Of a stretch of 64,000 bases of DNA, positions 1 through 21,677 are shown one piece after another. Numbering within the stretch: position 1 is the first letter of the stretch; each line of letters starts with the position of its first letter. Below the pieces are notes generated by a model. That model saw only the letters and a list, made by a program, of their open reading frames with translations, was not told where the DNA came from and made no database searches. The DNA comes from Candidatus Poribacteria bacterium (GTDB lineage: Bacteria > Poribacteria > WGA-4E > WGA-3G), in assembly GCA_965220065.1 (NCBI GenBank), contig OZ244804.1:4554431-4618430 (forward strand), read 5' to 3'. A program made the translations under genes and the position numbers.

Positions 1-2019
1 TACTGGATTATTACCAGAGTTTAACTGTTTCAGTTTTGTCAATCCTGAAAATGGGGAGAAATCAGATATCTGAGTGTTCCAAATAAATACCTCGATAAGA
101 TTTGTCAATCCTGCGAGTGGTGATAGATCCGATAGTGGATTATTTGAAATCCATAACTCTTCCAGATTTATAGCGTGCTCAATGCCCGTCAAATCTTTAA
201 TATCCCTGTTACTTGCTCTTATAATTGTTAATGTTGCCATCTCTTGAAGCGTAATCGGAACAGTCTCCTCTTTCCCAAGTGCGTCTGCGATTACTGCACG
301 CAGGTTCGGGTCGGAAATGTATACACCCGTACCGGGGATCCGCTCTGGACGCTCTTCAGTTGGCAGAAGAACCCTATCAGGGGTATCCAACACAGAAAGC
401 ACTCGGTCAAAATTAGATCTCCACGCATCCCGTTTCATAGTACTATCTTCCAACACCTGCAATCCTAAGTTTTGTAGACTCGCATTTTCACGAACTTTTT
501 CGAGGAACACCTCGGTCTCTAATCCGACAGCGGCAGCAGCGTGCGCCGCATCAAGAGGTCTCTGAAACGCCTCGTAGAACCGTTGAACGGGTTCAATCCC
601 ACCAAAGACACCGCCCGTTGCTTCAAGTGCCTGTCTATAACGGGCAGTATCTTCGCTTACCAAACGATCCATCGTCCCTTGGTTTGTATAGAGTTGCAAC
701 GCTCTGTCTTTATTAAAGGGTGGATTCGCGTTCCGTTGAATAACAGTCCGAACCGTATCTTGAAAATCTTTCATCCCTTCGGTGTGGCATCCAATACAGG
801 ACAATCCATTGCGGACGGTCGGATCACTCGCCGCCGGATTGGAAACGATGTTTATCGGTGCTTCATTAAGGCGATTACCGCTAGCATCTACCAACAGATA
901 TGCCTGCAATCCATTCGGCAAATTAAAGATAATTTCGCCACCGTCATGAGTGAAGGAGAGCGGATGTGTAAAGATGTTCTTTGTCCCAACGCTCCCAGCA
1001 AAGTCGTAACTTTTCCAATACGCGCCATATCGAGAGGTATGACGCTCCACAACACGGTTGTGATTCGACACGCCGGAATCGTTGAAACCTGCACGCCAAA
1101 CGCGTTTGCCTGCCGCATTTCGGAGATTGCTGACGACATCCACATCAAGTTCTGCCTCTAACTCCCGATCGGTTTCAGGAAGATTCAGAATGTCGTGATA
1201 GAGTGGGGGCAATGAGGCAGTCGCAAGAAACCAATCGACATGAACGAATGGCACCTCACAATCCATTGCTTCGCGCAGATTCGTTAATTTTTTATTCAGT
1301 CCTGTCTGTGTTGGGGCGTTGAATTCAATCTCATAAGGATATTCCGCCTCAATCAACGTCCACCGATTGGTTCCAATCTCCCATTCGTAGTCACGGAGGT
1401 CGATATGGAAAATCGTCTCTTCGGGATCAATGGGCTGTGGTTTGATAACCTCGCGTCCCCAAGAAAGACTGTTCACGAGTTTCGAGAGTGCCCGTTGATA
1501 GGCGTGGAGTGCCTCTGCACTTTCACCCGCGTTATAGAGATGTGTGAGTGTAAAATAGCGTGCGAAGGTGCGGTCGAACCGAGAAAGCGAGTTGACATGC
1601 TTCTCAATGGTATCGAGCATCTTCTTGGGCGTGATGAAGGAGATATCTGTCGCAGAGGTGCCTTCCCAACTCGGTGCGCCTGCTTGAATCCAATTACCAA
1701 TCGTCAGAATCGCCGCCGGTGGGAGTTGCGGTTGACCCAACGGCATCCGTTTTGCCGGATCCTTTACAAATAACCGCCTATAGAGTTCAGATTCAATCGG
1801 TTTCCTCGGAACGACTGTGCCTGTTTCGATGAGTGCCGTATGCTCAATGATGATTTCCTCAGTAAACGCCCCATGTTCTCCATGGCAGTTGAGGCAGTTT
1901 TGCTCAAAGATCGCATACGCCTGTTGTGCAAGATTCTGCTGTGCATCAACACTGTGAGAGTTGCCCAGAATGACGGTTAACAGAGAGATGAATGCGATAA
2001 AAATTTTCCAGTTTTTCAT
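1..2019 (-). CDS. N-terminal part of a giant secreted PSCyt-cytochrome / LRR / cohesin-dockerin / T9SS-CTD paralog (copy 1); C-terminal part lies beyond the window start.
   Basis: Reverse complement of 1997..2019 reads ATGAAAAACTGGAAAATTTTT (MKNWKIF), the same N-terminus as the 2661..6686 and 9601..13662 proteins. Plus-strand shadow ORF 541..1161 parallels shadow ORFs 5226..5825 and 12145..12753 of the two full copies at a constant offset. LRR-like sequence runs into position 1. Frame continuity was not verified base by base. Confidence 0.6.
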   Translation of the reverse strand, partial: MKNWKIFIAFISLLTVILGNSHSVDAQQNLAQQAYAIFEQNCLNCHGEHGAFTEEIIIEHTALIETGTVVPRKPIESELYRRLFVKDPAKRMPLGQPQLPPAAILTIGNWIQAGAPSWEGTSATDISFITPKKMLDTIEKHVNSLSRFDRTFARYFTLTHLYNAGESAEALHAYQRALSKLVNSLSWGREVIKPQPIDPEETIFHIDLRDYEWEIGTNRWTLIEAEYPYEIEFNAPTQTGLNKKLTNLREAMDCEVPFVHVDWFLATASLPPLYHDILNLPETDRELEAELDVDVVSNLRNAAGKRVWRAGFNDSGVSNHNRVVERHTSRYGAYWKSYDFAGSVGTKNIFTHPLSFTHDGGEIIFNLPNGLQAYLLVDASGNRLNEAPINIVSNPAASDPTVRNGLSCIGCHTEGMKDFQDTVRTVIQRNANPPFNKDRALQLYTNQGTMDRLVSEDTARYRQALEATGGVFGGIEPVQRFYEAFQRPLDAAHAAAAVGLETEVFLEKVRENASLQNLGLQVLEDSTMKRDAWRSNFDRVLSVLDTPDRVLLPTEERPERIPGTGVYISDPNLRAVIADALGKEETVPITLQEMATLTIIRASNRDIKDLTGIEHAINLEELWISNNPLSDLSPLAGLTNLIEVFIWNTQISDFSPFSGLTKLKQLNSGNNPV

Positions 2020-2149
2020 GTATTTTTCCTCCTTGTCCTAAGGCTTTGATTCGCAATCTTTAAAGATATCCGCAAGCCTTGCGAATTGAAATCTTCTGGA
2101 GAGCGATAGCACGTCATAAGTTTAAATTCACATGATAGTATGTTAAAAT

Positions 2150-2302
2150 AACCCAAGTTGCCAGTTGTAGCACAAACTTTCCAGTTTGTGTCTGTGGATG
2201 CGCAAACTGAAAGTTTACGCTACAAACATCAGCGAAGCCGCCACGATTTGCGAGGCAAACGCGGCACATAAGCCTAAAATCTTATAAGTAGCAACTTGGG
2301 TT
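2150..2302. promoter_or_regulatory. Structured upstream region of copy-1 gene. Outer 12-bp inverted repeat (aacccaagttgc / gcaacttgggtt) enclosing two oppositely oriented copies of the palindromic motif TGTAGCACAAACT-N4-AGTTTGTG.
   Basis: Motif at 2166..2190 (tgtagcacaaactttccagtttgtg). At 2200..2224 gcgcaaactgaaagtttacgctaca is its reverse-orientation copy. Outer repeat arms at 2150..2161 and 2291..2302. Confidence 0.5.
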
Positions 2303-2439
2303 AAAATATTAAGACACAATTTTTAGGCAAAACCTTACATCATGGAAAAAAAGGACTGGATCAGACGGGGATATACTCGTAAGGGAGGGCACTCTTCAAT
2401 AGAGAAATACTGAATTCAGGGCATTCACTTGAGAATATG

Positions 2440-2586
2440 TTACTCAAAAGCATTTGCGACAGCAACGAGATCGAGGACATTGACGATGCCGTCACCATTG
2501 ACAGCTGGTTCAACTTTGCCGAAAGCATTTGCGACGGCGACGAAATCCAAAATGTTCACTGCCCCATCGCTGTTAACATCGTCAAC
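2440..2586 (-). pseudogene. Orphan dockerin-pair coding fragment with no start codon, lying downstream of the T9SS-CTD gene 2661..6686.
   Basis: Reverse-complement translation gives VDDVNSDGAVNILDFVAVANAFGKVEPAVNGDGIVNVLDLVAVANAFE followed by a stop, preceded by an in-frame TGA and containing no Met. Plus-strand ORF 2437..2658 is its shadow. Matches the in-frame dockerin tails of genes 13699.. and 19309.. Confidence 0.65.
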
Positions 2587-2660
2587 TCAACCCATTCATC
2601 CGCGATGACTAGGAGATCCAATGAACATCAGCATCCTAGCCATCATAAGGTCATTTGATA

Positions 2661-5600
2661 CTATTTTACGATAACCATTCTCCGCGAATACGATAAACCC
2701 TCCGCCTGCAGTTGGTAGAAATAGACACCACTGGCAACGCGCTCACCGACAGCGTTTCTGCCATCCCAATAGGCGGCGCGACTCCGACCTGTATAATAGC
2801 CTTCATGCTGGTGTCCGAGATTCAGTTGGTGGACGATGGTCCCCCGCATGTCATAGATAGTGATTGTCACCTCACTGGGATTTGCCAAATGATACGGTAT
2901 CCATGTCTCTGGGTTGAACGGATTCGGATAGTTCGGGAGTAGTGCTGTCTCTGCAGGAATTAGTGATGCTAAGAGGCGTTGAAGGTTGGCGATACCTTCT
3001 TGGAAGGCAATGGAGCCGTCATCTTCAAGTTGTGCTTGTTTGATCCACGCTTGTATCATCGCAGGGTTCAATTCGTCCATGCTATCCATAGCAAGAATAG
3101 AAGGCGAAGCTGAAGCTGTTGATTTACCCATGTTCTGCGAGACAAGAATGAGATCCAAGATGTTAACAATTCCATCGCCATTTAGGTCAACATCTGAGTT
3201 GGCGGGGACGGTTTTTCCAAGGTGGCGAGCCACAAGCACCATATCCAGAATGCTCACCTGACCATCCCGATTCACATCTCCAGTAACCTGTTTCCCCTTT
3301 ACAGTAATGACGACCTCATGCGGTCCTGCCTCGATCAGTTTGCCGGTAATAGAAGCGAGTTGAAGGTTATCGAGTCGCAATTGCGTTTGTCCAGCAGTTT
3401 TTGCCGTAAATGTTACTGACAACAGAGCACCTGTGCCACTGACCCCGTCTTCGCTGAGCCTTGCTGAACTCAGCCCCTTAATCTTACCCGATCGATTCTC
3501 AATCGTTCCCCTCTGAAAGAAGGTCGCTCCGCCTTGTGTTTTCAGGAAATTGCCTTCGTTGACCTCAACGGCTTCAAGCACAGCGGAGTCATAAGCAATA
3601 TCAAATTGCCATCCCGCTAAATTGTAGATATCCTCTGCCCTAATTTCGAGCGTAAACGTATTCCCGGCATCGATGATAGGTTGGGAAAATACGTATCCGA
3701 CACGCGGGTTTAACACGGTATACTCTGCCTCTGGGTTAAATCCCCAAAAACCGTTACCCGTCGTTGCTGTTGCAACTAACAAGACATTTGCTCCCTCTTT
3801 GAGCGTAACAGGGACGAAATGTTGGTAATCCGATCCGCTTAAACCCCGTTTCTCATGAACCAAAGCACCGTTGAGCCAGGCTTTACCACCGTCGCTATTC
3901 CCTACACACAGCGTCACCTCTTGTTCCCGGGGTGCATACAAAACAACACATCCATAAATAACACCATGCCGAATAGGAGGCATTAACACCTCCTCGCTAA
4001 TTTCACCCCGCCCCGTAGGCGATATTTTGTCGGAATACCAGAGGTTATCTCCAACAGGATTCCCTTCGGTCGCGCCATGGGTTGAAACCTTTACTTCTGT
4101 CACCGAGCCACCACTCGCTTCTGCAAGGTAATCTATTCGACCTTCAGGATTAAAATTTATCCCCGGCAGTAGCACCCATAACCAGGGACCCTCTATTTTA
4201 GGTCCCCCCTGAGGGAAACCCGGATTTTGGTGCCAGATGATTTTTAGATCCTCTCGTAATCCATCTAAAGGCGAAAAGTCAGATATCATATTTTCGCCAA
4301 CGTGCAACCATGTCAACTGCTTTAATTGGGCAAGGGGCGACACGTCCGATATTTCGTTTTTTGGAAGTTCTAACCATTTCAGGTTGGTTAGTTTCGCTAA
4401 GGGCGATATATCCGATATACCATTGCCAGTAAGATCTAAACGCGTTAACCCCATCAATTTCGCCACAGGTGTGACATCCGATACCCTGGAAAAGCGAAGA
4501 TACAGTTGTTTCAAATTTCTTGCCCCCTCCAGGGTTGATACATCAGGCTCCCCCCCACAAATATCTATAGTTTCAAGCCCTACGAGTGGTGATAGATCAG
4601 ATAATGGATTCCCCCAAGAATCAAACCTTTCCAGATTCGATAAACCCACCAAAGGTGAGAGATTCGATATATTGTTATGGCTAACCTTCAGAAGTTGAAG
4701 ATTCTTTAATCCCGTCAGCGGCGATAAGTCACTTATTTCATTGCTACTAATATCTAAGAGATCCAGTTTTGTTAATCCCTCTATAGGGGATATGTCGGAT
4801 ATTTGGTTTCCCTGAATTTCTAACCGTTCCAGATTTGTTGCGAACTCAAGTCCCGCCAAATCGCTGATGTCCTTGTCTGCAGCAGTAAGCCGCTCCAACA
4901 TCATCATCTCTTCCACTGTAATTGGGGTGTTTGGTGTTTTTCCGATTTCTTCTTCAATGACCGCACGCAAATTCGGGTCGGGGATGTAAACAGATGCCCC
5001 AGGGATGCGTTCCGTCTGCGGATCAACTGAAATCACTACATCCGGGAAATCCAACGCAAACACAATTTCACTGAACTTCGATGTCCATGTATCCCTTTTC
5101 ATCGTGCCATTTTCTAAGACTAACACCCCTAAACTCTTCAAATTCGCGGAGGCACGAATCCTCTTCAGAAACGCCTCGGTCTCCAACCCAACGGCGGCAG
5201 CGGCATACGCCGCATCCACCGGTCTTTGAAATGCCTCGTGGAACCGTTGGACGGGTTCAATCCCACCAAACACATCGCCGGTCGCTTTCAGTGCTTGTTT
5301 GTAGCGATCGGTATCCTCCGCGAGGAGTCCCGCCATCGTCACTTTGTCTGTATAGAGTTGCAACGCCCGGTCTTTGTTAAAGGGTGGATTCGGGTTCTTC
5401 TGAACAACGCCACGCACCTGATCTTCAAAATCCTTCATCCCCTCGGTGTGGCAACCGATACAGGAGAGTCCGTTACGGACAGTCGGATCACTTGCAGCCG
5501 GATTGCGAACGATATTTATGGGTGCCTCATCAAGTCGTCTGCCGCCGGCATCCGAGAGATAGTATGCCTGCAAACCGTTGGGCAGGTTGAAGATAACCTC

Positions 5601-6686
5601 GCCGCCATCATGGGTGAAAGAGAGTGGATGTGTAAAGATGTTCTGTGTGCCGACACTCCCGGCGAAGTCGTAACTCTTCCAATACGCACCGTATCGAGAG
5701 GTATGGCGCTCAACGACGCGGTTGTGATTGGATACACCCGAATCGCTGAAACCTGCACGCCAGACGCGCTTTCCTGCTGCATTCCGAAGATTTTCAACAA
5801 CATTTACCTCAAGTCGTTCCTCTAATTCTCGATCGGTTTCTGGAAGGTCTAAGATGTCATGATAAAGTGGCGGCAAGGAGGCGGTCGCAAGAAACCAATC
5901 GACATGAATGAACGGCACCTCACACGCCATCGCTTCGCGTAGATTCCTCAGTTTTTCACGTAGACTCGTTTGTGTGGGTGCGTTGAATTCAATCTCGTAA
6001 GGATATTCCGCCTCAATCAATGTCCACCGATTGGTTCCGATTTCCCATTCGTAATCCCGGAGGTCAATATAAAAGATGGTTTCTTCCGGATCAATAGGCT
6101 TTGGGACGATAACGTTGCGTCCCCAGGAGAGACTGTTCACGAGTTTCGAGAGTGCTCGCTGATAGGCATGGAGTGCTTCCGCACTCTCACCCGCATTATA
6201 GAGATGTGTGAGTGTAAAATAGCGTGCGAAGGTGCGGTCGAACGGAGAAAGGGAGCTGACGTGCTTCTCAATGGTATCAAGCATCTTCTTGGGCGTGATG
6301 AAGGAGCCATCTGTCGCAGAGGTGTCCTCCCAATCCGGTGCCCCTGCTTGAATCCAATTTCCGATGGTTACAATCGCGGCACCGGACAGTCGAGGTTGAC
6401 CCAATGGCATCCGTTTGGCAGGATCATCTACAAGCAACCGCCGATAGAGTTCGGATTCAATCGCGGGTTTCCCCGGAACAACTGCGCCTGTTTCGATGAG
6501 TGCTGTGTGATCAATGATGATTTCTTCAGTAAATGCGCCGTGTTCGCCATGGCAATTAAGACAACTTTGCTCAAAAACCGCATACGTCTGTTGGGCGAGA
6601 TTTTGCTGTGCATTAACAGTGTGAGAGTTGCCCAAAATGAGGGTCAATAGGGAAACGAATGTGATAAAAATTTTCCAGTTTTTCAT
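2661..6686 (-). CDS. Giant secreted multidomain protein (copy 2). Signal peptide, c-type cytochrome domain with CLNCH plus a second CIGCH motif (Planctomycete-cytochrome-like), large uncharacterized domain, internalin-type LRRs, beta-sandwich region, type-I-like cohesin, dockerin pair, T9SS type-A C-terminal sorting domain.
   Basis: N-term MKNWKIFITFVSLLTLILGNSHTVNA. CXXCH motifs CLNCHGEHG and LSCIGCHTEG. LRR repeats ISDLSPLxGLxNL. Cohesin-like WQFDIAYDSAVLEAVEVNEGNF. Dockerin DVNRDGQVSILDMVLVARHLGK...DLNGDGIVNILDLILV. C-term LLPNYPNPFNPETWIPY...IYDMRGTIV...WDGRN..GERVASGVYFYQLQA....MVIVK matches the Por_Secre_tail consensus. RBS caaggaggaaaaacacATG. Confidence 0.8.
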   Translation of the reverse strand: MKNWKIFITFVSLLTLILGNSHTVNAQQNLAQQTYAVFEQSCLNCHGEHGAFTEEIIIDHTALIETGAVVPGKPAIESELYRRLLVDDPAKRMPLGQPRLSGAAIVTIGNWIQAGAPDWEDTSATDGSFITPKKMLDTIEKHVSSLSPFDRTFARYFTLTHLYNAGESAEALHAYQRALSKLVNSLSWGRNVIVPKPIDPEETIFYIDLRDYEWEIGTNRWTLIEAEYPYEIEFNAPTQTSLREKLRNLREAMACEVPFIHVDWFLATASLPPLYHDILDLPETDRELEERLEVNVVENLRNAAGKRVWRAGFSDSGVSNHNRVVERHTSRYGAYWKSYDFAGSVGTQNIFTHPLSFTHDGGEVIFNLPNGLQAYYLSDAGGRRLDEAPINIVRNPAASDPTVRNGLSCIGCHTEGMKDFEDQVRGVVQKNPNPPFNKDRALQLYTDKVTMAGLLAEDTDRYKQALKATGDVFGGIEPVQRFHEAFQRPVDAAYAAAAVGLETEAFLKRIRASANLKSLGVLVLENGTMKRDTWTSKFSEIVFALDFPDVVISVDPQTERIPGASVYIPDPNLRAVIEEEIGKTPNTPITVEEMMMLERLTAADKDISDLAGLEFATNLERLEIQGNQISDISPIEGLTKLDLLDISSNEISDLSPLTGLKNLQLLKVSHNNISNLSPLVGLSNLERFDSWGNPLSDLSPLVGLETIDICGGEPDVSTLEGARNLKQLYLRFSRVSDVTPVAKLMGLTRLDLTGNGISDISPLAKLTNLKWLELPKNEISDVSPLAQLKQLTWLHVGENMISDFSPLDGLREDLKIIWHQNPGFPQGGPKIEGPWLWVLLPGINFNPEGRIDYLAEASGGSVTEVKVSTHGATEGNPVGDNLWYSDKISPTGRGEISEEVLMPPIRHGVIYGCVVLYAPREQEVTLCVGNSDGGKAWLNGALVHEKRGLSGSDYQHFVPVTLKEGANVLLVATATTGNGFWGFNPEAEYTVLNPRVGYVFSQPIIDAGNTFTLEIRAEDIYNLAGWQFDIAYDSAVLEAVEVNEGNFLKTQGGATFFQRGTIENRSGKIKGLSSARLSEDGVSGTGALLSVTFTAKTAGQTQLRLDNLQLASITGKLIEAGPHEVVITVKGKQVTGDVNRDGQVSILDMVLVARHLGKTVPANSDVDLNGDGIVNILDLILVSQNMGKSTASASPSILAMDSMDELNPAMIQAWIKQAQLEDDGSIAFQEGIANLQRLLASLIPAETALLPNYPNPFNPETWIPYHLANPSEVTITIYDMRGTIVHQLNLGHQHEGYYTGRSRAAYWDGRNAVGERVASGVYFYQLQAEGLSYSRRMVIVK

Positions 6687-6839
6687 GTGTTTTTCCTCCT
6701 TGTACGACTAAGGGTTTGATTAATAAGTTATAGTAGATTTCTATGACTTTAGCTTTTTTCCAGAGGTATTCGCGACGATAACGAGATTCAGGACATTCAT
6801 AATCCATTACCGTATAACAGTTGGAGATGAAATCACCTT

Positions 6840-9056
6840 CTATTTCAGATAAATCTCACCGTCTAAATCAGAAAGGGTGTGATTCACACCAGTAACTCCA
6901 CTTGTGACAGCGGATGCCTGCTCCGGTAAACGAATCTTCTGTTGCTTTCCGCTACGGTTGTAGACTGCCCAACCGTTGGTGAACTCACGGATGAATACAC
7001 CCTCGCTGTCGTCGTAAAGTTGACCCTTCGTTTCATCACCTCCGATCGGACGACCCAAGGGAGCGTCATAGAACCGGTAGTAGTATTTGGAGTGGTGATC
7101 AACATTTTCAAGACGGGCATGTCCCTCTAACTGTGCTTCAGTGCGTCCAACGCTAAATAAAACATAACCATCAGAATGTGTGAGAGTGAGGGTGGTAGTA
7201 ACACGCATCATTTGCTTATTGAGTGGAGAATCTAATGGTTCAGTCGGTACTGCGAAAACTTCAAGAGCATTTATTTGAGGTTCGCGCAGGTTTTTCTCTG
7301 ACCATAACAAGGTACTTTCTATTTCTTGGAGTCCAGCATGAGTCAAATAACCATCCTCATTGTCCCACAAACTTCCTATGAAGGCACCATTGATGTACGG
7401 AGCAGAACACCGAGCTTTAGACTGGTTCGTGTTAACAATAATCAGAAAATCGTCGCCAACGGCTTCACGCATACGACGGAGCATAGAAATTCTCGCTTCC
7501 CACTCATCATAGGTATAATTTAGATGAGGATTTGTACTATTTTCGTTCCACCAATTCAGGAACATACCATCATAGATACCACTCTTGGCAATAGCAACGG
7601 CTTGTTGGACGAAATGATTTTGAGCACTGGGATACGTCCAGTCTATGAGAAGTTCACCCCAACCTACGTCTTGAATTCTATCTCCATTTTCATCCCTTAA
7701 CCAATATGGCCAATCCTCTGGATAAACTTCTGGTGGTGCCCCATAATAGTATATTGCCGCAAGCAGTAAATGATTTGGATTTAGTTTCTGTACCTCACTT
7801 CTTTCATTCTGAATATGCTCTCCTTCTGCTACAAGCAACTGAGATCCATCAGGTGTAAAGTGCCACTGGGCACTGCGGAATGACCCTACTACAAACAGAT
7901 CATGATAACTCAACATCTCTTTATGATACGACCATTCCCATATATTATCGGGTCTTGGATAGTTTAGTAGTTGATGATCCCACATTCCAAAAACAGAAGG
8001 ATATGTTCTGTTTTCAACGCGTTCTACGATGCTCGGTCTATCGGACAGTCTAAGTGAATTCTCCGATGTATTGGGGGTTGAGACCTTCTCAGAAACCTGT
8101 AAACCGGCACTATTGCTTTTACTGATGGTCGTAACTTGCCCAATCTGATTTCGCACGGAGGGTTTTGCGTCAGTCTCAAGGACGATAGGGGCATCAATAA
8201 TTTCAACGGTAGGTTCGGATTCAGCCTCGAAGCTGTAAGGTTTTTGAAAATGTGCGAGGTATTGGTTGCTAACACTGAGCATCAATAGGGTTACTAAAAC
8301 CACAGCTGTCCCAAAAGCCGCCCAGGGGAGCAACGGTTTCGTAGCCGAGGGTGGGGTCAGTTTCAGATCAGCGACTTGCTGCATGACGTTCTGGGTTAAA
8401 TTCGCCGATATCTGCACACTGCCCAGAACCTCTTGAACCAAGGCTTCTTCTTTCTCCCGTAAACGTTTACGTGCCCGACTCAGACGACTACTGATCGTCT
8501 TTACGGAAACGCCCAAGAACTTACTAATCTCCTTCATTGTCATTTCGCCGAGATAGAAAAGCGTCATGACGGTGCGTTCACTCTCCGGCAGTTTTTCAAG
8601 AAGTTTTTTCACGACTTCACGCCGGCGTTCCTCGGCTTCTGCCTCGCGGTGCTCCGACAAATAGTGAGTATAGGAGAGTTTTTCTACTTCATCCACGCGT
8701 GTATCCTCCAGCGATTGCATCGTAGATTTTTGTTTTCGCAGCCAATCCAGGCAACGCCGATTCGCCATGACATAGAGCCATCCGGCAAATTGATAGGGAT
8801 CTCTGAGGGTCGGGAGTTTTTTATAGACTTGGAGGAAGGTGTCTTGGGTAATCTCTTCAGCATAGTGAAAATCGCCAATCTTTCGCCATACAAGCGCATG
8901 AACGCTCTTCTGGTACTTGTCGACCAAGATGCTGAACGCTACATCATCACCTGATAAAATTCTCTGTATCAATTGAACATCGTCTTCTCTTTCCATCAGG
9001 ATTCTCCATGATTCATGAATAGATTTCGCAGCTTTGAACGTTCCCTTTTCTGGCAA
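6840..9056 (-). CDS. ECF sigma-70 factor fused in one polypeptide to a transmembrane helix and a large extracytoplasmic glycoside-hydrolase-like (GHL) TIM-barrel-type domain.
   Basis: N-terminal sigma-70 region 2 (HALVWRKIGDFHYAEEITQDTFLQVYKKL) and region 4 (ERTVMTLFYLGEMTMKEISKFLGVSVKTISSRLSRARKRL). Hydrophobic segment LLPWAAFGTAVVLVTLLMLSV. C-terminal approx 430 aa shared with genes 13699, 16242, 19309 and 21678 (YPSVF..YHDLF..NPNLLLL..YPEDWPYWLRD..IDWTYP..AVAIAKSGIYDGMFLNWW..DDFLIIVNT..YINGAF..REPQIN..THSDGYVLF..FIREFTNGWAVYNRSG..DLDGEIYLK). The xDFTHPxVQxxIIQQxxEVAKCGIFDGIxxDxW stretch resembles the active-site region of GHL10/DUF187-type hydrolases (inference). Confidence 0.8.
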   Translation of the reverse strand: MPEKGTFKAAKSIHESWRILMEREDDVQLIQRILSGDDVAFSILVDKYQKSVHALVWRKIGDFHYAEEITQDTFLQVYKKLPTLRDPYQFAGWLYVMANRRCLDWLRKQKSTMQSLEDTRVDEVEKLSYTHYLSEHREAEAEERRREVVKKLLEKLPESERTVMTLFYLGEMTMKEISKFLGVSVKTISSRLSRARKRLREKEEALVQEVLGSVQISANLTQNVMQQVADLKLTPPSATKPLLPWAAFGTAVVLVTLLMLSVSNQYLAHFQKPYSFEAESEPTVEIIDAPIVLETDAKPSVRNQIGQVTTISKSNSAGLQVSEKVSTPNTSENSLRLSDRPSIVERVENRTYPSVFGMWDHQLLNYPRPDNIWEWSYHKEMLSYHDLFVVGSFRSAQWHFTPDGSQLLVAEGEHIQNERSEVQKLNPNHLLLAAIYYYGAPPEVYPEDWPYWLRDENGDRIQDVGWGELLIDWTYPSAQNHFVQQAVAIAKSGIYDGMFLNWWNENSTNPHLNYTYDEWEARISMLRRMREAVGDDFLIIVNTNQSKARCSAPYINGAFIGSLWDNEDGYLTHAGLQEIESTLLWSEKNLREPQINALEVFAVPTEPLDSPLNKQMMRVTTTLTLTHSDGYVLFSVGRTEAQLEGHARLENVDHHSKYYYRFYDAPLGRPIGGDETKGQLYDDSEGVFIREFTNGWAVYNRSGKQQKIRLPEQASAVTSGVTGVNHTLSDLDGEIYLK

Positions 9057-9544
9057 TAATCAAAAAAGGCCACTCCGTATGATACACGCTTTCGTGACAG
9101 ACTGCCTCTGCCGAGAGGTTCCCGATCGAACGTAGTAAATACGCATCCGATACACTGTTTTCATTTTGAAGGATCGCGTTGCCAATATCTATAGGCAGAG
9201 GTCGTTTATGTGCCGCATTTGCAGTTGTAGCACGTAGAATTCAAAGACCGCACCATTTGATATGGGATCTTCCCTTCCCCTGTTGTTAAAGACGCAATTT
9301 TTTTATTAAAAGTCTGCACTAATTTAACGAATACCAATTCTGATTGATGACTTCTTTTAAAGAGCGTTTCCTGTTTTCGGAGCATGTCCGGTGCGGTTAG
9401 GGGATTTAGTCTGGGGAGAGACTGGATTTAGTCTGGGAATAGACTAAATCCGTTCCTTGTATTACATTCCGCACCTACCGGGCCTGAGTAGATAGTGTGG
9501 TTGAAGTAGCATTCGTAACTCTCAAACGAGCCGTTAAAGATAGA

Positions 9545-9581
9545 AGGGTGGAAGTCCTCTAACTTCCACCCTACTTTTTTG
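9545..9581. terminator. Rho-independent terminator-like hairpin, possibly bidirectional, downstream of gene 9601..13662.
   Basis: agggtggaagt-cctcta-acttccaccct is a perfect 11-bp stem, followed by ACTTTTTTG on the plus strand and preceded by a T-rich tract on the minus strand. Lies 20..56 bp past the stop of the minus-strand gene. Confidence 0.55.
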
Positions 9582-9600
9582 TAACCTTACCAATGCCTTT

Positions 9601-12600
9601 CTATTTCCGTATCAGCATCTTCCGCGTTGCCGTGAAATCACCCGCAGTGAGCGTGTAGAAGTAGAGACCACTCGCTACGGACTCACCTATGTCGTTTCTG
9701 CCATCCCAATAGGCGGCGCGACTCCGACCTGTATAATAGCCTTCATGCTGGTGTCCGAGATTCAGTTGGTGGACGATGGTCCCCCGCATGTCATAGATAG
9801 TGATTGTCACCTCACTGGAGTTTGCCAAGTGATACGGTATCCATGTCTCTGGATTGAACGGATTTGGATAGTTCGGAAGCAGTGCTGTCTCTTTTGGAAT
9901 CAACACCACTAAAAGGCTTTGAAGGAAAGCAATACCCTCTCGGAAGGCAATAGAACCGTCATCTTCAATTTGTGCCTGTTCGATCCATGCCTGTATCATC
10001 GCAGGGTTCAATTCGTCCATGCTATTCATAGCAAGAATAGAAGGCGAAGCTGAAGCTGTTGATTCACCCATGTGCTGAGAGACAAGAATGAGATCCAGGA
10101 CATTGATGACTCCATCACCATTTAGGTCAACTTCCGAGTTAGCAGACGCAGTTTTTCCGAAATTCCGAGCAACAAGCACCAAATCCAGAATGCTCACCTG
10201 ACCGTCCCGGTTCACATCTCCAGTCGTGAGTCGTCCCGCTACGGTAATGACGACCTCATGTGATTCTGCAGTGATGGAATTACCGGTAATAGAAGCGAGT
10301 TGAAAGTTATCGAGTCTCAATCGCGTGTGTCCTGCTGATTTTGCTGTAAATGTTACTGACAACAGGGCACCCGTGCCACTGACCCCGGTTTCACTGAGTC
10401 TTGCTGAACTGAGACCTGCAATCTTACCCGACCGATTCTGAATCGTTCCCCTTTGAAAGAAGGTCGCTCCGCCTTGTGTTTTCAGGAAATTCCCTTCGTT
10501 TACCTCAACGGCTTCAAGCATAGTGTGGTCAAAGGCAATATCAAATTGCCATCCCCCTAAATTGTGGATATTTTCTACGTTGAGGTCGAGAGTAAATGTA
10601 TCACCGAGATAGATGAGGGGTTTAGAGAAAGTGTATCCAATACGGGGATCTACGGATACCGAATACTCCGTGCCTTCTTCAAAACTGAAATAACCGCTCC
10701 AACCGCCATCAAATTCATAAACACCCACTAATAAAAAATTTACCCCTTGTTTCAGCGTGACGGGAAAAGCCCTTGGAACCCCGCGGAAAGTGCCATCCAC
10801 TTTCTGTCCATTGAGCCAGGCCTTGCCCACATTATCAGCCTCAGCAAATAAGAATATATCCTGCTCCCGGGGCGAAATCACACGAACTGAACCATAGGCA
10901 ATATGGTTGTTTATATCGCCTTTTCCCAGTCCAGTGGCGTTTGCCATGTCATTCATATTATTATCTGTCGAGGATATTTTGTGAGATTTCCATACACTGC
11001 TTCCAACAAGCGCGCCTTTGGTTGCACCATGGGTCGCAATTTTTAACTCCGTTACCTCACCGCTACTCATCTCTGCAAGAAAATCTGTATCCAGTGACCT
11101 ACCCTCTGTTGGTGTAATTACCCATAACCACGGTCCCTCTATTTTCGGACCTTCCTTTACTGAGGACCCTGGGTTGAATAAGTCAAAAATCTTTGTCGTC
11201 TCAGGCAAGTCATCTAAGGGTGAGAAGTCGGATATATTGTTGTTCTCAAGATCTATCCATTTAAGATTTGTTAACCCGGATAACGGGGATATATCAGATA
11301 TATTGCATTCTCTGAGATTCAGCCATTCGAGGGTGGTTAACCCTGCCAAAGGGGATATATCCGAAAGCCGTCCATTCGCGGCAACACTCAGATGCGTCAA
11401 ATTCGTCAAGTTCGCCAAGGTTGAAAGGTCTGTATCCGACACACCGCAGAAATTTAGATAGAGTTCTTTCAAATTTTTGGCATCCTTCAGCACAGATATA
11501 TCTGGATCTCCACCACATATATCTATATTCCAAAGGTTCGGAAGTTTCATCAGGGGTGATAGGTCAGATAAGAAATTGTTCCAAGACTTAAAATATTCCA
11601 GGTTTTTTAATTCTTCCAGAGGTGAAAGATCGGATATTTTGTTGTTACCTATGTTGATCTTCGCCAAGTTTGTCAATCCTGCCACAGGTGAGAGATCTGA
11701 AACCGAATTATGACCAATATCTAAGGCCCATAAGTTATGTAGTCCAGCAATCGGCGACAGGTCAGAAATGTGCTTGTTACCCTTAAGCCATAGATCTCGC
11801 ATATTTGTTGCAAACTCAAGTCCTGTTAAATCGCGGATGCCTTTGGCATCCGCAAGTGTCTCAAAAGTTTCCAAAGTTGCCATCTCGTCTGCTGTGATCG
11901 TGGCCCCCGGTGCTTTGCCGAGTACTTCTTCAATGACCGCCCGCAGGTTCGGATCAGGAATGTAGACAGATTCTCCAGGGATGCGTTCCGTCCGAGAATC
12001 AACTGACGCTCCACCACTTTTCGATGGGAAATCCAGCGCAAACACGATTTCACTAAACCGATCTGTCCATGTGTCCCGTTTCATTGTGTCGTTCTCTAAC
12101 ACCAATAAGCCTAAATTCTGTAAACTCGCGTTCGCACGAATCTTTTGGAGAAACGTCTCGGTTTCCAAACCGACAGCGGCGGCAGCATACGCCACATCAA
12201 GCGGTCTTTGGAATGCCTCATGGAACCGTTGGACCGGTTCAATCCCACCAAAGACACCCCCCGTTGCTTCAAGTGCCTTCCGATAACGGGCGGTATCCTC
12301 CGCCACAAGCGTATCCATCGTTCCCTTGTCTGTATAGAGTTGCAACGCTCTGTCCTTGTTAAAAGGTGGATTCGCGTTGCGTTGAATAACACCCCGAACC
12401 GTATCTTGAAAATCTTTCATCCCTTCGGTGTGGCATCCAATACAAGACAATCCGTTGCGGACGGTCGGGTCGCTCGCCGCCGGATTGGAAACAATGTTTA
12501 TCGGTGCCGCATCAAGTCGTCTACCGCCGGCATCCGCGAGGTAGTACGCCTGCAAACCGTTGGGCAGGTTGAAGATTATTTCACCCCCATCATGTGTGAA

Positions 12601-13662
12601 AGACAGCGGATGCGTAAAGATGTTCTGTGTCCCGACACTCCCCGCAAAGTCATAACTTTTCCAATACGCCCCGTATCGAGAATCATGACGTTCCACAACG
12701 CGATTGTGATTCGACACACCGGAATCGTTGAAACCCGCACGCCAAACACGTAATCCCGCTGCGTTGCGAATATTTTCGACCACATTCACCTCAAGCCGTG
12801 CCTCTAATTCCCTATCGGTTTCTGGAAGGTCTAAGATGTCATGATAGAGTGGCGGTAAGGAGGCAGTCGCAAGAAACCAATCCACATGAACCAATGGCAC
12901 CTCACAATCCATCGCTTCGCGCAGATTCATTAGTTTTTCACGGAGTGCTGTCTGCGTTGGCGCGTTGAATTCAATCTTGTATGGATATTCCGCCTCAATC
13001 AACGTCCACCGATTGGTTCCGATCTCCCATTCGTAGTTTCGGAGGTCGATATAGAAGATCGTTTCTTTCGGATCAATGGATCGTGGGTTAATAACCTTAC
13101 GCCCCCAAGAGAGACTGTTCACGAGTTTCGAGAGTGCCCGTTGATAGGCGCGGAGTGTCTCAGTCGTCTCACCGGCGTTATAGAGATGTGTCATCGTAAA
13201 ATAGCGGGCGAAGGCACGGTCAAACGGTGCGAGTGAGTTCACATGCTCCTCAATCGTGTCAAGCATCGCCTTGGGTGTAATGAAGGCGGTGTCTCGTTCT
13301 GGCATCTGCCAATCCGGTGCGCCCCTTTGAATCCAATTCCCAATCGTCAGAATTGCGGCGGGAGGCAGTTGGGGTTGACCCAACGGCATCCGTTTTGCCG
13401 GATCGTTTGTGAGGAGTCGCTTATAGAGTTCAGATTCTATCGGTTTCCTCGGAACGACTGTGCCTGTTTCGATGAGTGCCGTATGCTCAATGATGATTTC
13501 CTCAGTAAACGCCCCATGTTCTCCATGGCAGTTGAGGCAGTTTTGCTCAAAGATCGCATACGCCTGTTGTGCAAGATTCTGCTGTGCATCAACACTGTGA
13601 GAGTTGCCCAGAATGAGGGTCAACAGCGAAATAAATATAATAAAAATTTTCCAGTTTTTCAT
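9601..13662 (-). CDS. Giant secreted multidomain protein (copy 3), same architecture as 2661..6686: cytochrome c, LRR, cohesin, dockerin, T9SS CTD.
   Basis: N-term MKNWKIFIIFISLLTLILGNSHSVDA. CLNCHGEHG and CIGCH. LRRs. WQFDIAFDHTMLEAVEVNEGNF cohesin. DVNRDGQVSILDLVLVARNFGK...DLNGDGVINVLDLILV dockerin. LLPNYPNPFNPETWIPY... CTD ending MLIRK. Long stretches nucleotide-identical to copy 2 (e.g. approx 9700-9820 vs approx 2760-2880). Confidence 0.8.
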   Translation of the reverse strand: MKNWKIFIIFISLLTLILGNSHSVDAQQNLAQQAYAIFEQNCLNCHGEHGAFTEEIIIEHTALIETGTVVPRKPIESELYKRLLTNDPAKRMPLGQPQLPPAAILTIGNWIQRGAPDWQMPERDTAFITPKAMLDTIEEHVNSLAPFDRAFARYFTMTHLYNAGETTETLRAYQRALSKLVNSLSWGRKVINPRSIDPKETIFYIDLRNYEWEIGTNRWTLIEAEYPYKIEFNAPTQTALREKLMNLREAMDCEVPLVHVDWFLATASLPPLYHDILDLPETDRELEARLEVNVVENIRNAAGLRVWRAGFNDSGVSNHNRVVERHDSRYGAYWKSYDFAGSVGTQNIFTHPLSFTHDGGEIIFNLPNGLQAYYLADAGGRRLDAAPINIVSNPAASDPTVRNGLSCIGCHTEGMKDFQDTVRGVIQRNANPPFNKDRALQLYTDKGTMDTLVAEDTARYRKALEATGGVFGGIEPVQRFHEAFQRPLDVAYAAAAVGLETETFLQKIRANASLQNLGLLVLENDTMKRDTWTDRFSEIVFALDFPSKSGGASVDSRTERIPGESVYIPDPNLRAVIEEVLGKAPGATITADEMATLETFETLADAKGIRDLTGLEFATNMRDLWLKGNKHISDLSPIAGLHNLWALDIGHNSVSDLSPVAGLTNLAKINIGNNKISDLSPLEELKNLEYFKSWNNFLSDLSPLMKLPNLWNIDICGGDPDISVLKDAKNLKELYLNFCGVSDTDLSTLANLTNLTHLSVAANGRLSDISPLAGLTTLEWLNLRECNISDISPLSGLTNLKWIDLENNNISDFSPLDDLPETTKIFDLFNPGSSVKEGPKIEGPWLWVITPTEGRSLDTDFLAEMSSGEVTELKIATHGATKGALVGSSVWKSHKISSTDNNMNDMANATGLGKGDINNHIAYGSVRVISPREQDIFLFAEADNVGKAWLNGQKVDGTFRGVPRAFPVTLKQGVNFLLVGVYEFDGGWSGYFSFEEGTEYSVSVDPRIGYTFSKPLIYLGDTFTLDLNVENIHNLGGWQFDIAFDHTMLEAVEVNEGNFLKTQGGATFFQRGTIQNRSGKIAGLSSARLSETGVSGTGALLSVTFTAKSAGHTRLRLDNFQLASITGNSITAESHEVVITVAGRLTTGDVNRDGQVSILDLVLVARNFGKTASANSEVDLNGDGVINVLDLILVSQHMGESTASASPSILAMNSMDELNPAMIQAWIEQAQIEDDGSIAFREGIAFLQSLLVVLIPKETALLPNYPNPFNPETWIPYHLANSSEVTITIYDMRGTIVHQLNLGHQHEGYYTGRSRAAYWDGRNDIGESVASGLYFYTLTAGDFTATRKMLIRK

Positions 13663-13698
13663 GTATTTTCCTCTTGCGTTATTTTATTTCAGGATATG

Positions 13699-15954
13699 CT
13701 ACTCAAAAGCATTGGCGACGGCGACGAGATCCAGAACATTGACTGTTCCATCGCCATTGACATCTGGGGTATCCTTGCCAAAAGCATTTGCGACAGCAAC
13801 GAGGTCAAGGATATTGACAATCCCATCCGCATTGACATCCGTTGTGGGAGGGGTTTCTAAACCCGATTCCGATTTCAGATAGATTTCACCATCTAAATCA
13901 GGTAGAATGTGCAGGGTGTTGCGTAAACTACTTTCTACACCTGTTGCTTGTTCTATTAGGCGAATAACTTGGGGGGCACCACTGCGGTTATAGACCGCCC
14001 AGCCATTGGTGAACTCTCGGATAAACAACCCCTCTCGGTTCTCATAAAGCTGCGCTTTGGTTTCATCGCCACCAACCGGTTGACCGAGAGGAGCATCATA
14101 GAAGTCGTACCAGTACTTCGTGTTTTGGTGAGTGTGCCGCTTGCCCTGTGCATGAAGATCCGTATGACCTGGCCAAAATTCAAAAGGGTGGGCGGGATGG
14201 TCAAGGGCACCTCCCATGGTAAACATGACATAACCATCGGAATGCGTCAAACTCATCGTCGTCCATAGACGCATCCATTGTAGATTTCTCGAGCTATCCA
14301 GCAGTTCGTTCCTCACGCCCCTGCCTGCTAAACAGTTGATTTGAGGTTCTCGAAGGTTTTCTTCAGCCCACGACAGCGTGCTTTCAATTTCGGAAAGTCT
14401 TGCGTAGGTATAACCGCCCTCATAATCTTCATAAGTTTCCATGAAAACGCCATTGATATATTCCGCATGCCTCGGAATAGTTGTACCAATCGTGTTAGTC
14501 GTCGTTACCAGTATCAAGAAATCCTCACCAACAGCATCACGAATCCCTTGTATGATACGATCCTTTGCGGTATTGGCTTCTTCTACGGTTATATATCCTT
14601 CAAGTGCCTTCGCCCAATGATCTATGGCAATTCCGTCGAAAATCCCACACTTTGCAACTTCAATCGCCTGTTGGATAATCCACTCTTGCGCAGCAGGACG
14701 TGTGAAGTCTATTATATATTCATCCCATGTCGGAATTTCTAATATATTTCCCGATTCATCTCTGAGCCAATATGGCAAATCCTCTGGGTATTCGAGGCGA
14801 GACGCAGCATAGTAATGTATGCCTGTCAGGAGAATCAGATTTGGATTCTGAGCGCGCATCCGATCTATTATTTGCATGGAATCCTCAAGGTTTCCTGTTA
14901 ATTTCCAGCCGTCTGGTGTTGAATTCCAAGCCCACCCGAAACTTACAGCGCAGAAAAACAGATCGTGATATGCTATCCCCTCTTCCCTTGAAAGTTTTGG
15001 GAGGTTCACTATATCCCCACATGCTTGAAAAACCGACGGATGCGCCCTATTTTCAATACGAGGCAGTATAGGGGCTCTCTCTATATCGCAAGTAACTAGA
15101 CGGTGTGTCTTTAGTATCTGAAGGACTTCTGAATCTAATGATATACGTCCCAAAGTTAAGACTTCTATCCCGGCAAGCCCATAAATCGGTGTAAAGTCAA
15201 TGATTTTATTTCTGCTGAGATGCAATTCTTTCAGATTCACCAAGCCTTGTAGCGGTGATATATCTGCTATCTGATTACTTTCAAGTGCCAATCCTTTTAA
15301 GTTGACGAGTCCAGTGAGTGATGAAATATCTTCTATCTGATTTGCTTCAAGTTGCAATTCTTTCAGGTTCACCAAGCCTTGTAGCGGTGATATATCCGTC
15401 AGAAGATTGGCGTTCAGTTCAAGAACCTGTAGTCCCACAAGTCCCGCGAGTGGTGAAATATCTGCTATCTGGTTACGTCCCAATACCAAAACTTCCAGAT
15501 TTATCAAACCTGCAAAGGGCGTTATATCCGAAATTCGATTCTCATACAACTTTAAAACCCGTAAGTTCTCAAGCCCCACGAGCGGTGTTAAATCCGACAC
15601 TTGACTTTTAATAATAGACAAGGATTCTAAGTTCTCAAGTCCCGCAAGTGGCGTTAAATCTGAGACTTCACTTCTGTCAATAACCAAAACTTTAAGATTC
15701 ACGGCATGCTCAAGTCCTTTTAAACTCCTAATATCGGGTTCTATTTTTATTAAGAGAAGATTTTGTAATCTTGCCATGTCGCCAGGGTGTATCGGTATTG
15801 TGTCCGGAACTGCGAGTTCTTCACGGATAGCTTGCTGTAGATTCGGGTCAGGCATCCAGTCTTCTTTGTCTTGGGCGTGTGTGATGTCTCCGAGTGAGGT
15901 AATTAGTAGCAATCCGATCAACATAACTGTAGATATGAATCCATTGATTTTCAT
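13699..15954 (-). CDS. Secreted LRR + GHL-domain protein with C-terminal dockerin pair. True start is the MKINGF signal peptide; the ORF-track extension to 16350 is spurious.
   Basis: MKINGFISTVMLIGLLLITSLGDITHAQ signal peptide, matching the start of gene 19309..21546. Reverse complement of CAT at 15952..15954. LRRs VSDLTPLAGLENL. GHL domain. C-term DVNADGIVNILDLVAVANAFGKDTPDVNGDGTVNVLDLVAVANAFE. Only 36 bp from the upstream gene, so probably co-transcribed. Confidence 0.75.
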   Translation of the reverse strand: MKINGFISTVMLIGLLLITSLGDITHAQDKEDWMPDPNLQQAIREELAVPDTIPIHPGDMARLQNLLLIKIEPDIRSLKGLEHAVNLKVLVIDRSEVSDLTPLAGLENLESLSIIKSQVSDLTPLVGLENLRVLKLYENRISDITPFAGLINLEVLVLGRNQIADISPLAGLVGLQVLELNANLLTDISPLQGLVNLKELQLEANQIEDISSLTGLVNLKGLALESNQIADISPLQGLVNLKELHLSRNKIIDFTPIYGLAGIEVLTLGRISLDSEVLQILKTHRLVTCDIERAPILPRIENRAHPSVFQACGDIVNLPKLSREEGIAYHDLFFCAVSFGWAWNSTPDGWKLTGNLEDSMQIIDRMRAQNPNLILLTGIHYYAASRLEYPEDLPYWLRDESGNILEIPTWDEYIIDFTRPAAQEWIIQQAIEVAKCGIFDGIAIDHWAKALEGYITVEEANTAKDRIIQGIRDAVGEDFLILVTTTNTIGTTIPRHAEYINGVFMETYEDYEGGYTYARLSEIESTLSWAEENLREPQINCLAGRGVRNELLDSSRNLQWMRLWTTMSLTHSDGYVMFTMGGALDHPAHPFEFWPGHTDLHAQGKRHTHQNTKYWYDFYDAPLGQPVGGDETKAQLYENREGLFIREFTNGWAVYNRSGAPQVIRLIEQATGVESSLRNTLHILPDLDGEIYLKSESGLETPPTTDVNADGIVNILDLVAVANAFGKDTPDVNGDGTVNVLDLVAVANAFE

Positions 15955-16241
15955 AAGGCGTATTCTCCTTCTATTAGATAGTAGAAATTGGTTTGTTTTT
16001 CTGGTGTTAGAACTATTTGGGATGGCAACAAGGTCCAAAATGTTGACGCTTTCATCGCTATTGACATCTGCAGGCGATGTGCTTATTTTATAAAAATCTC
16101 GCCGTCTAAATCCGGGATGGTGTGTGATGTGCTGCTGATACGACTCGCAACACCTGTGGCTTGGATCGGCAACTGGATCTGCTATTCTTTGCCGCTGCGA
16201 TTGCAGACCACCCGTCCGAGTTATCATAAGGTCATTTGATA
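15955..16241 (-). pseudogene. Untranslated fossil of a GHL-domain 3' end plus one dockerin repeat, between the T9SS-CTD gene 16242..19211 and gene 13699..15954.
   Basis: Nucleotide homology to the 3' ends of genes 6840.., 13699.. and 21678.. (ttataaaaatctcgccgtctaaatccggg...). Translation gives a remnant like AVYNRSGKE*QIQLP...IPDLDGEIFIK with an internal stop, then FYKISTSPADVNSDESVNILDLVAI (decayed dockerin). Plus-strand ORF 15988..16239 is its shadow. Confidence 0.6.
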
Positions 16242-19211: not shown

Positions 19212-19308
19212 CTTTGACTCCTACAATAAGGAAAAGAAGTCCTCCTAATAAGGGGACTTCTGTACTGACCGCTGACGGCTGATAGCCGTCAGCCATCAAC
19301 AGCCATCA

Positions 19309-21546: not shown

Positions 21547-21593
21547 AGAGCGTATTCTTTTCCTATATTAGGTCGTAGAAATTCGTTTGTCTT

Positions 21594-21677
21594 TCTGGTG
21601 TTAGAAACGATTTGCGATAGCAACGCGATCAAAAATGTTGACGCTTTCATCGCTATTAACATCCGCAGGTGGTGTGC
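21594..21677 (-). pseudogene. Out-of-frame decayed dockerin repeat immediately 3' of the sigma-fusion gene 21678..24425.
   Basis: Frame +1 relative to the gene reads RDLYKISTPPADVNSDESVNIFDRVAIANRF then a stop. In the dockerin-tailed paralogs the same junction is in frame (DLDGEIYLKSESGLETPPTTDVNADG...). Plus-strand ORF 21598..21801 is its shadow. Confidence 0.55.

Follow-up and report, generated by a model that had tools for sequence, protein, structure and literature searches.

The untranslated gene ends found in this array of Candidatus Poribacteria genes quite probably have two origins, namely the in-situ loss of a dockerin tail behind two genes (g2 and g7) and rearrangement junctions behind two others (g5 and g1), and the C-terminal T9SS-type sorting domains (CTDs) of the array would be ancestral gene parts that have undergone gene conversion. 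This reading is drawn from homologies, breakpoints and colinearity observed directly, as well as from a transposon end behind the CTD genes and from conservation in other genomes.

The window, which is the whole 64,000-nucleotide stretch of DNA that was analysed, belongs to the genome of a sponge symbiont. Every long gene from position 1 to position 24425 lies on the minus strand; together they form an array of paralogous surface-protein genes (Table 1). The architectures were assigned by Pfam and NCBIfam profiles and by comparison of the paralogs within the window. The GHL15 domain (PF14885) scored 29-45 bits in g2, g4, g5 and g7 against a cut-off of 27, and 23.2 bits in g6, which is under the cut-off but clearly paralogous nonetheless; the Dockerin_1 and Cohesin domains exceed the Pfam cut-offs. 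Genes g1 and g3 are homologous over their entire length, and the 5' part of g0 shares 84% identity with g3 and 80% with g1. The repeats of the array share 75-96% identity. Moreover, g4 is a mosaic of g6-like and g7-like segments, so that a model of simple unit duplication leaves part of the array unexplained. All of the closest relatives belong to Candidatus Poribacteria, among them a closed genome (locus L004) that is syntenic, with a flank 87-92% identical to the window. Within 2661..13662 and 13699..21546, large PSCyt1/LRR/cohesin/dockerin/CTD genes adjoin GHL15-dockerin genes and fusions of an ECF sigma factor to a GHL15 ectodomain, which points to a cohesin-dockerin assembly at the surface that would have a dedicated sensor, the binding partners being putative.

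Table 1. Genes, domains and gene-end remnants of the array, with their positions in the window
Feature	Position	Strand	Architecture, evidence or remark
g7	24425..21678	-	ECF sigma factor, transmembrane stretch, LRR, GHL15
g7 TAA (21678..21680), then one dockerin repeat in the -1 frame	21604..21680	-	same tail in L002
g6	21546..19309	-	LRR-GHL15-dockerin
g5	19211..16242	-	LRR-GHL15, YWTD-type propeller, CTD
g5 CTD	16245..16523	-	TIGR04183 match
g5 TAG and 27-nt End A remnant of the DUF1670 element	16215..16244	-	aligned to full-length elements
Last 44 codons of a sigma-GHL15-type gene with internal stop (GRVVCNRSGKE*QIQ...DLDGEIFIK)	16086..16217	-	tblastn, nhmmer
TAA, 17-nt linker, dockerin repeat (16068..16012), spacer, ribosome-binding site	15961..16085	-	layout as behind g7
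g4	15960..13699	-	LRR-GHL15-dockerin
g3	13662..9601	-	PSCyt1-LRR-cohesin-dockerin-CTD
g3 CTD	9604..9882	-	end type YFYTLTAGDFTATRKMLIRK; followed by neither a transposon end nor a fossil
g2	9056..6840	-	ECF sigma / transmembrane / (LRR) / GHL15
g2 TAG (6840..6842), decayed linker, one dockerin repeat (WIMNVLNLVIVANTSGKK), second stop	6754..6842	-	same frame as g2
g1	6686..2661	-	PSCyt1-LRR-cohesin-dockerin-CTD, architecture as g3
g1 CTD (T9SS type A sorting domain)	2664..2942	-	TIGR04183, 39 bits against a cut-off of 23
g1 TAG (2661..2663) and ~82-nt End A remnant of the DUF1670 element	2581..2663	-	aligned to full-length elements
Inverted-repeat core TATCAAATGACC behind g1 TAG	2660..2649	-	End A remnant
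Startless dockerin pair and stop (2440..2442)	2440..2580	-	5'-truncated tail of a GHL15-dockerin gene
Nested inverted repeat, upstream region of g0	2149..2303	.	not part of the g1 fossil
g0	2019..1, continues past the window edge	-	third PSCyt paralog

A sequence-only reading of this DNA had proposed four untranslated remains of dockerin or GHL 3' ends behind genes of the array. All four exist and are homologous to in-frame dockerin or GHL15 3' ends, as seen with tblastn and nhmmer. The decayed repeat placed at 6740..6839 was recovered at 6839..6754 (nhmmer E 1e-12), and the GHL end with internal stop and dockerin repeat placed at 15955..16241 was recovered at 16217..16086 and 16068..16012. 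Two of the proposals required correction. The startless dockerin pair at 2440..2586 holds for 2440..2580, but its first two 'codons' (2586..2581) are a transposon-end remnant and not dockerin, and the repeat at 21594..21677 does lie out of frame, at 21681..21604, with an offset of -1/+2 rather than +1.

Only g2 and g7 appear to have lost their own dockerin. The single decayed repeat behind g2 is colinear with the tails of g4 and g6, and nhmmer scores 6869..6754 at 43.3 bits, whereas the 30-nt GHL end that is shared gives 16.9 bits by itself. Behind g7, a profile of GHL15-dockerin tails matches 21707..21606 with an E-value of 1e-11. With regard to the protein profile Dockerin_1, the single repeats behind g7 and g5 reach 16.1 and 19.9 bits, under the cut-off of 22.9, and the one behind g2 gives no match; they are remnants rather than domains, with a homology that is carried by the nucleotide profile. 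The codon that follows the GHL15 domain is TCG in g4 and g6 and TAG in g2. In g7, in the fossil downstream of g5 and in L002, a locus of another species, this codon is TAA and is followed by a linker 16 nt shorter, which shifts the frame, and a fragment in L005 has TAG at the same codon. The g2 remnant is still in frame behind its TAG, and the stop falls on one and the same codon in g2, g7, L002 and L005. The first lesion was therefore most likely a nonsense mutation at the domain boundary, which in the sigma-GHL15 tail most likely predates the species split. The sigma-fusion genes had been proposed to have lost their dockerins by frameshift; they do seem to have carried a dockerin once, but the frameshift was probably not the first lesion.

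The fossil behind g5 has another source. Its coding part, 16217..16086, is 73% identical at the amino acid level to the end of g7 (tblastn) and matches a GHL15-end profile from profile position 112 onwards (nhmmer E 1e-33), and the GHL15-dockerin tail profile matches 16112..16015 (E 1e-9). Furthermore, 16208..15628 is 79% identical over 585 nt to 21803..21229, a segment that comprises the end of g7, the spacer and the start of g6, and the colinearity of the fossil extends up to the start codon of g4 at 15960. It carries the private marks of the sigma-GHL15 genes, with a TAA after ...FIK and a linker 16 nt shorter than in g4 and g6, followed by the single repeat DVNSDESVNI, a spacer and then a gene that begins with MKINGFISTVML; this arrangement recurs behind g7 and behind the sigma-GHL15 gene of L002. 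Gene g5 keeps its own complete GHL15 end in frame (17639..17379), of which the fossil duplicates 44 codons, and hence nothing was inserted into g5. The fossil would either be left over from a sigma-GHL15 gene once located between g5 and g4 or mark the place where a copied segment began, inside such a gene. Additionally, the frame of g4 has no stop over the 390 nt that precede its real start, a stretch that takes in the fossil, the transposon remnant and the end of the g5 CTD, so that ORF callers give a false gene of 883 codons (13699..16350).

The fragment behind g1 likewise appears to derive from a neighbouring gene type. Read in its frame, 2580..2443 translates to DVNSDGAVNILDFVAVANAFGKVEPAVNGDGIVNVLDLVAVANAFE and then a stop, with 85% amino acid identity to the dockerin of g4 (tblastn E 2e-21) versus 57% to the dockerin of g1 itself. 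In an nhmmer search of the whole window with the profile of in-frame GHL15-dockerin tails, 2581..2441 was matched with an E-value of 2e-33, and 2443..2580 also meets Pfam Dockerin_1 (PF00404) with 35.0 bits against 22.9, in two stretches with DVNSDG and VNGDG loops. Its 5' side has neither an ATG nor a ribosome-binding site, and stops lie just upstream. On the other side, the 11 nt past the fossil stop (2439..2429) match the flank behind the g4 stop, and 2429..2543 matches 13688..13802. The order of the g1 fossil and g0 mirrors that of g4 and g3, with the 5' part of g0 matching the 5' part of g3. Locus L078 carries an ortholog of g1 with 82.8% identity over 4.1 kb; there, the PSCyt gene comes after an intact GHL15-dockerin gene, and the 3' flank of the ortholog is homologous to the window only up to 2582. 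The fossil differs from g4 with a pN/pS of 0.17 and a pS of 0.66; this mostly synonymous divergence points to a long-separate functional paralog that was truncated fairly recently. The sequence-only reading, which took the fossils behind g5 and g1 for the former tails of these genes, is therefore not upheld, the former being the end of a sigma-GHL15-type gene and the latter a GHL15-type dockerin.

Further downstream of g1, the nested inverted repeat in the upstream region of g0 has 21-nt arms 113 nt apart, with 17-nt arms within, and is missing from the orthologous spacer of L004. An 18-nt piece of it (2210..2227) has one further copy only, in L012 (11435..11452), behind a CTD gene.

The tail and spacer of the sigma-GHL15 genes are 83-86% identical between paralogs and species, compared with 75-80% for the adjoining GHL15 coding sequence (regions compared: 21547..21680, 15961..16085 and L002:3092-3225). 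This conservation hints at a function, perhaps as a promoter or leader for the next gene. It also bears on the idea that the fragments are functional in general, as silent 3' cassettes for tail switching, through a -1 slip at A-AAA-TAA behind g7, or as promoters or leaders, which we hold to be unlikely. The g5 fragment does open with a stretch homologous to the pre-tail region of g5 itself, and the dockerin frame behind g7 is the -1 frame, after AAA-TAA. Nevertheless, the g5 fragment has an internal stop and a tail that is already of the dead sigma-GHL15 type, the g2 copy has two stops, and the repeats behind g7 and in the g5 fossil have E in place of a conserved G, a single repeat not making a dockerin. 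Moreover, no slippery heptamer of the X-XXY-YYZ type is present behind g7, and no sigma-70-type promoter was found in the fossils on the gene (minus) strand, in a scan that does not cover ECF-type promoters.

Chimeric joins between paralogs, introduced during the assembly of a metagenome-assembled genome, could in principle produce such fragments, given array repeats of 75-96% identity and a transposon end that breaks many short-read assemblies. This seems most improbable, as every fossil is 14-25% diverged from all other copies in the window and thus cannot have been pasted from another locus. Additionally, the same tail structure or similar junctions are found in the independent genomes of L002, L001, L005 and L078.

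Fragments of GHL15 ends were found directly behind CTD stops once in L001 and twice in L005, and such scars therefore appear to be common in these arrays. Their junctions are at GHL15 profile position 74-76, versus 112 in the window. The pieces in question (PEGLFIRE...) lie 10-15 nt behind the CTD stops, at L001:5772-5842 and at L005:1687-1765 and 3735-3760, and the L005 fragment is fused to ...EIYLK-TAG-ESELETPPT. All three junction types, that is, the two in the window and that of L001 and L005, fall within the last 10% of the truncated gene, a clustering that is mildly unexpected for random deletions. Exact matching of g5 against public assemblies gave no record, a protein-based metagenome scan with the GHL15 domain of g7 gave no confirmed relative, and a literature search for Poribacteria together with dockerin or cohesin found nothing specific.

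With regard to the CTDs, the domains of g1, g3 and g5 match TIGR04183 with 39-41 bits against a cut-off of 23, the match reaching the last residue. Over the whole domain, nucleotide identity is 89.2% between g1 and g5, 85.3% between g1 and g3 and 79.9% between g3 and g5, figures at odds with the identical block of about 280 nt that had been described for the three genes. The g5 CTD is about 90% identical to the CTDs of g1 and of its ortholog in L078. In a three-way alignment, the g1 CTD is itself a mosaic. From its start at 2942 to 2754 it is g3-like (96.3% identity, informative sites 20:2), and from 2752 through the stop to 2634 it is g5-like (94.4%, 44:3), a contrast of 20:2 versus 3:44 with a Fisher p of 3e-12. 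The crossover at ~2753 places the exchange point in the middle of the domain and not at LLxNYPNPF, and g3 departs from g1 and g5 already about 90 nt ahead of its stop.

Among 25 CTD genes of Poribacteria there are two types of CTD end, ...YFYQLQA..LRKMVILK and ...YFYTLTAGDFTATRKMLIRK, which are spread independently of gene family; for instance, the L004 ortholog of g5 carries the other type than g5. A swap of end types between orthologs (QLQA...LRKMVILK versus TLTAGDFTATRKMLIRK) was also seen in the segments 9604..9693, 2664..2753 and 16245..16334 when compared across L001-L014. This distribution indicates that the last 30 codons of the CTD are frequently converted. The propeller-CTD end of g5 and the cohesin-dockerin-CTD ends of g1 and g3 recur in L001-L005, L010 and L078, and the presence of CTDs in both gene families of other Poribacteria makes the CTD an ancestral part of both. 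Moreover, a dockerin and a CTD occur together in frame in g1, g3, L005 and L137, and in-frame GHL15-dockerin-CTD genes exist, so that the two modules do not exclude each other. In g1, g3 and g5 the CTDs thus appear to be ancestral gene parts homogenised within the genome by gene conversion.

It is very unlikely, by comparison, that a mobile cassette consisting of the CTD and 19 nt beyond it was grafted onto genes that ended in a dockerin, with the old tail pushed out downstream, as the sequence-only reading had it. The CTDs of g1, g3 and g5 are 80-96% identical by segment, versus 76% for the gene body of g5 and its L004 ortholog, and this higher identity means that CTD sequence does move between genes; a recent exchange among the three, which had also been proposed, is borne out by the g1 mosaic. 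Furthermore, the 19 nt after the stop are the same in g1 and g5 (19/19). Against the grafting of a cassette stand the CTDs found in orthologs of both families in other species, where both architectures are present, and the in-frame combinations of dockerin and CTD, which are likewise incompatible with a swapping of one module for the other. The g5 fossil repeats 44 codons that g5 retains and has sigma-GHL15-specific features, and the dockerin left behind g1 is of the type that goes with GHL15, a domain that g1 lacks. Nor is there a common breakpoint, since g3 lacks the 3' part (8/19 matches past its stop), g1 has its crossover in mid-CTD and the remnants behind g5 and g1 measure 27 and 82 nt. 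Homology does start at LLxNYPNPF between g5 and the pair g1/g3, which have different upstream domains, but g1 and g3 are homologous throughout. Finally, the 19 nt are the end of a transposon that is present behind many unrelated CTD genes in more than 120 contigs.

The flank of g1 aligns, up to ~2581, with one end (End A) of the full-length elements in L137, L135 and L048 and with the flank in L078. About 82 nt of End A are retained behind g1, about 93 nt behind its ortholog in L078 and 27 nt behind g5, which sets the junctions of g1 and g5 with their fossils at different positions of the element; what the two genes have in common is a transposon end and not a cassette edge. A homology of the first 50 nt behind the g1 stop to GHL15 ends was considered and dropped, as nhmmer does not support it and the stretch is the transposon end.

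A metagenome scan with the last Lys codon, the TAG and the next 12 nt retrieved more than 120 contigs from very different environments, and in at least 77 of them the motif lies behind a CTD-type C-terminus, the sequences of these being quite different. The element family, observed here in loci L015-L158, therefore appears to be widespread. The motif is either present or absent, with no intermediates, and distinct CTD genes within one sample have identical flanks. In 24 loci, two paralogous genes in convergent orientation come next, each of ~280 codons and with a match to Pfam DUF1670, and inverted repeats TATCAAATGACC lie at both ends of the element, 1883-2006 bp (~1.8-2.0 kb) apart, for a total element length of 1.9-2.0 kb. 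One closed genome has five copies and a single contig of 6.3 Mb has four, and internally deleted and miniature copies exist as well. With its terminal inverted repeats, multiple copies at different sites and defined length, the DUF1670 element appears to be insertion-sequence-like.

For the analysis of insertion sites, copies were fetched via the DUF1670 protein and not via the motif. A complete CTD gene adjoins 23 of these 24 protein-fetched copies, its TAG lying directly against the element end that is closest to the second DUF1670 gene, and the flanked genes belong to families as varied as cohesin-dockerin, GHL15-dockerin, peptidase C39, cadherin-like, 5'-nucleotidase and PSCyt. When read in the orientation of the CTD gene, the three bases just outside the far end are a stop codon in 26 of 28 cases (14 TAA, 10 TAG and 2 TGA), and the two copies without it are the two that do not lie beside a CTD gene. 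Most simply, insertion would place the element directly after the last codon and ahead of the original stop, with a TAG supplied by the element itself and no target duplication. We regard it as rather more probable than otherwise that this is a barely described family of site-specific elements that homes to T9SS-CTD genes in one orientation, at the last Lys/stop, where a new TAG would be provided and the old stop displaced, and that its remnants become sites of rearrangement.

The element evidently breaks assemblies behind CTD genes. Of 120 contigs or loci, 23 terminate within 160 nt downstream of the motif, versus 7 upstream of it. Among L134 (2200-2240), L019, L055, L116, L033 and L132, there are many short-read contigs that end 90-155 nt past the motif, as well as a scaffold in which the junction shows NN and AAATAG is duplicated.

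The element proteins have only DUF1670 and weak helix-turn-helix matches and are annotated merely as 'DUF1670 domain-containing protein'. Profile and structure searches with them retrieved no recognisable transposase domain, no NCBIfam model and no solved relative, and an AlphaFold2 model from a shallow alignment was unusable (pLDDT 48). An Rfam search of 18 loci with the post-stop motif gave no match at E <= 1, and literature searches on the motif, DUF1670, PF07900 and ISA1214, within one library of papers, found nothing relevant. Several other identities for the motif were tried and rejected. An integron attC site would have its paired boxes in another order, and the tail of a convergent gene does not agree with downstream sequences that are unrelated. 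A conserved -1-frame peptide, IVSNDHRxx (nine codons, 36 of 77 cases), was abandoned once both inverted repeats and the DUF1670 genes had been found, and an indel in L102 breaks its frame. Target duplication of TA, as in the IS630 type, does not fit the two copies with TGA at the far end.

From these observations we infer the order of events and, for each junction, an origin by deletion or by duplication. The sigma-fused GHL15 genes would descend from dockerin-bearing genes, and they may have acquired a stop at the first codon after the GHL15 domain before the species split, after which the untranslated dockerin behind the new stop would have decayed. In g5 and g1, the stop codon would have been the site of a mobile-element insertion. 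Subsequently, rearrangement may have left the 5'-truncated 3' end of a neighbour, of a sigma-GHL15 gene behind g5 and of a GHL15-dockerin gene behind g1, with both junctions apparently inside the remnants of the element at these stops. The truncated ends, still colinear with the next gene, would be the product of a deletion or would mark where a segmental duplication ended; the two models give an identical final sequence. The stepwise history is not reconstructable. Gene conversion, with a crossover in g1 at ~2753, would have homogenised the three CTDs.

The array shows how a sponge symbiont may diversify its surface proteins, with paralogs duplicated, truncated and patched by gene conversion, and with membrane-bound sigma-factor fusions that seem to be derived from dockerin-bearing, enzyme-like genes. 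It also calls for caution, as a downstream fragment is not necessarily the former tail of the gene that it follows. The fossils as such are ordinary, if instructive, array evolution, and the unexpected part is the identity of the shared 19 nt. If the proposed behaviour of the element is true, recognition of the coding end of a sorting signal, with harmless insertion, would be a new kind of 'safe-site' strategy; DUF1670 would gain a function, and assembly breaks behind T9SS-tagged genes would be explained.

In tandem arrays of paralogs, gene fragments occur at the edges of segmental duplications or deletions, together with gene conversion between paralogs. The array resembles such cases in its 5'-truncated 3' ends colinear with the next gene, its mosaic paralogs and a sharp conversion breakpoint, and differs from them in that two junctions lie inside mobile-element remnants at a stop codon. 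The rhs and cdiA genes of polymorphic toxins have orphan C-terminal cassettes downstream. The g5 fragment is similar to these orphans in that it starts with a conserved pre-tail, has an alternative C-terminal module and lies behind a full-length gene. Conversely, it has an internal stop, a dead module and no paired immunity gene, and it comes from a neighbouring gene of different architecture. As in cellulosome-type families, the enzyme-like dockerin genes adjoin large cohesin-bearing proteins; unlike in these, the host is a sponge symbiont and the cohesin proteins, whose partners are putative, also carry a dockerin, PSCyt1, LRRs and a T9SS-type CTD.

With regard to the mobile element, Tn7 inserts at attTn7 behind glmS and leaves the gene undisrupted, and the IS200/IS605 and IS110/IS1111 families are insertion sequences without target duplication. 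The DUF1670 element is comparable to them in its single orientation, its exact position at a coding end, the intact gene and the lack of a target duplication. Unlike Tn7, it targets the multicopy end of T9SS-type CTDs and not a single housekeeping gene. Moreover, in contrast to Tn7 and to these families, it appears to land between the last codon and the stop, supplying a new TAG, and it encodes two DUF1670 helix-turn-helix proteins in which no transposase domain is recognisable.
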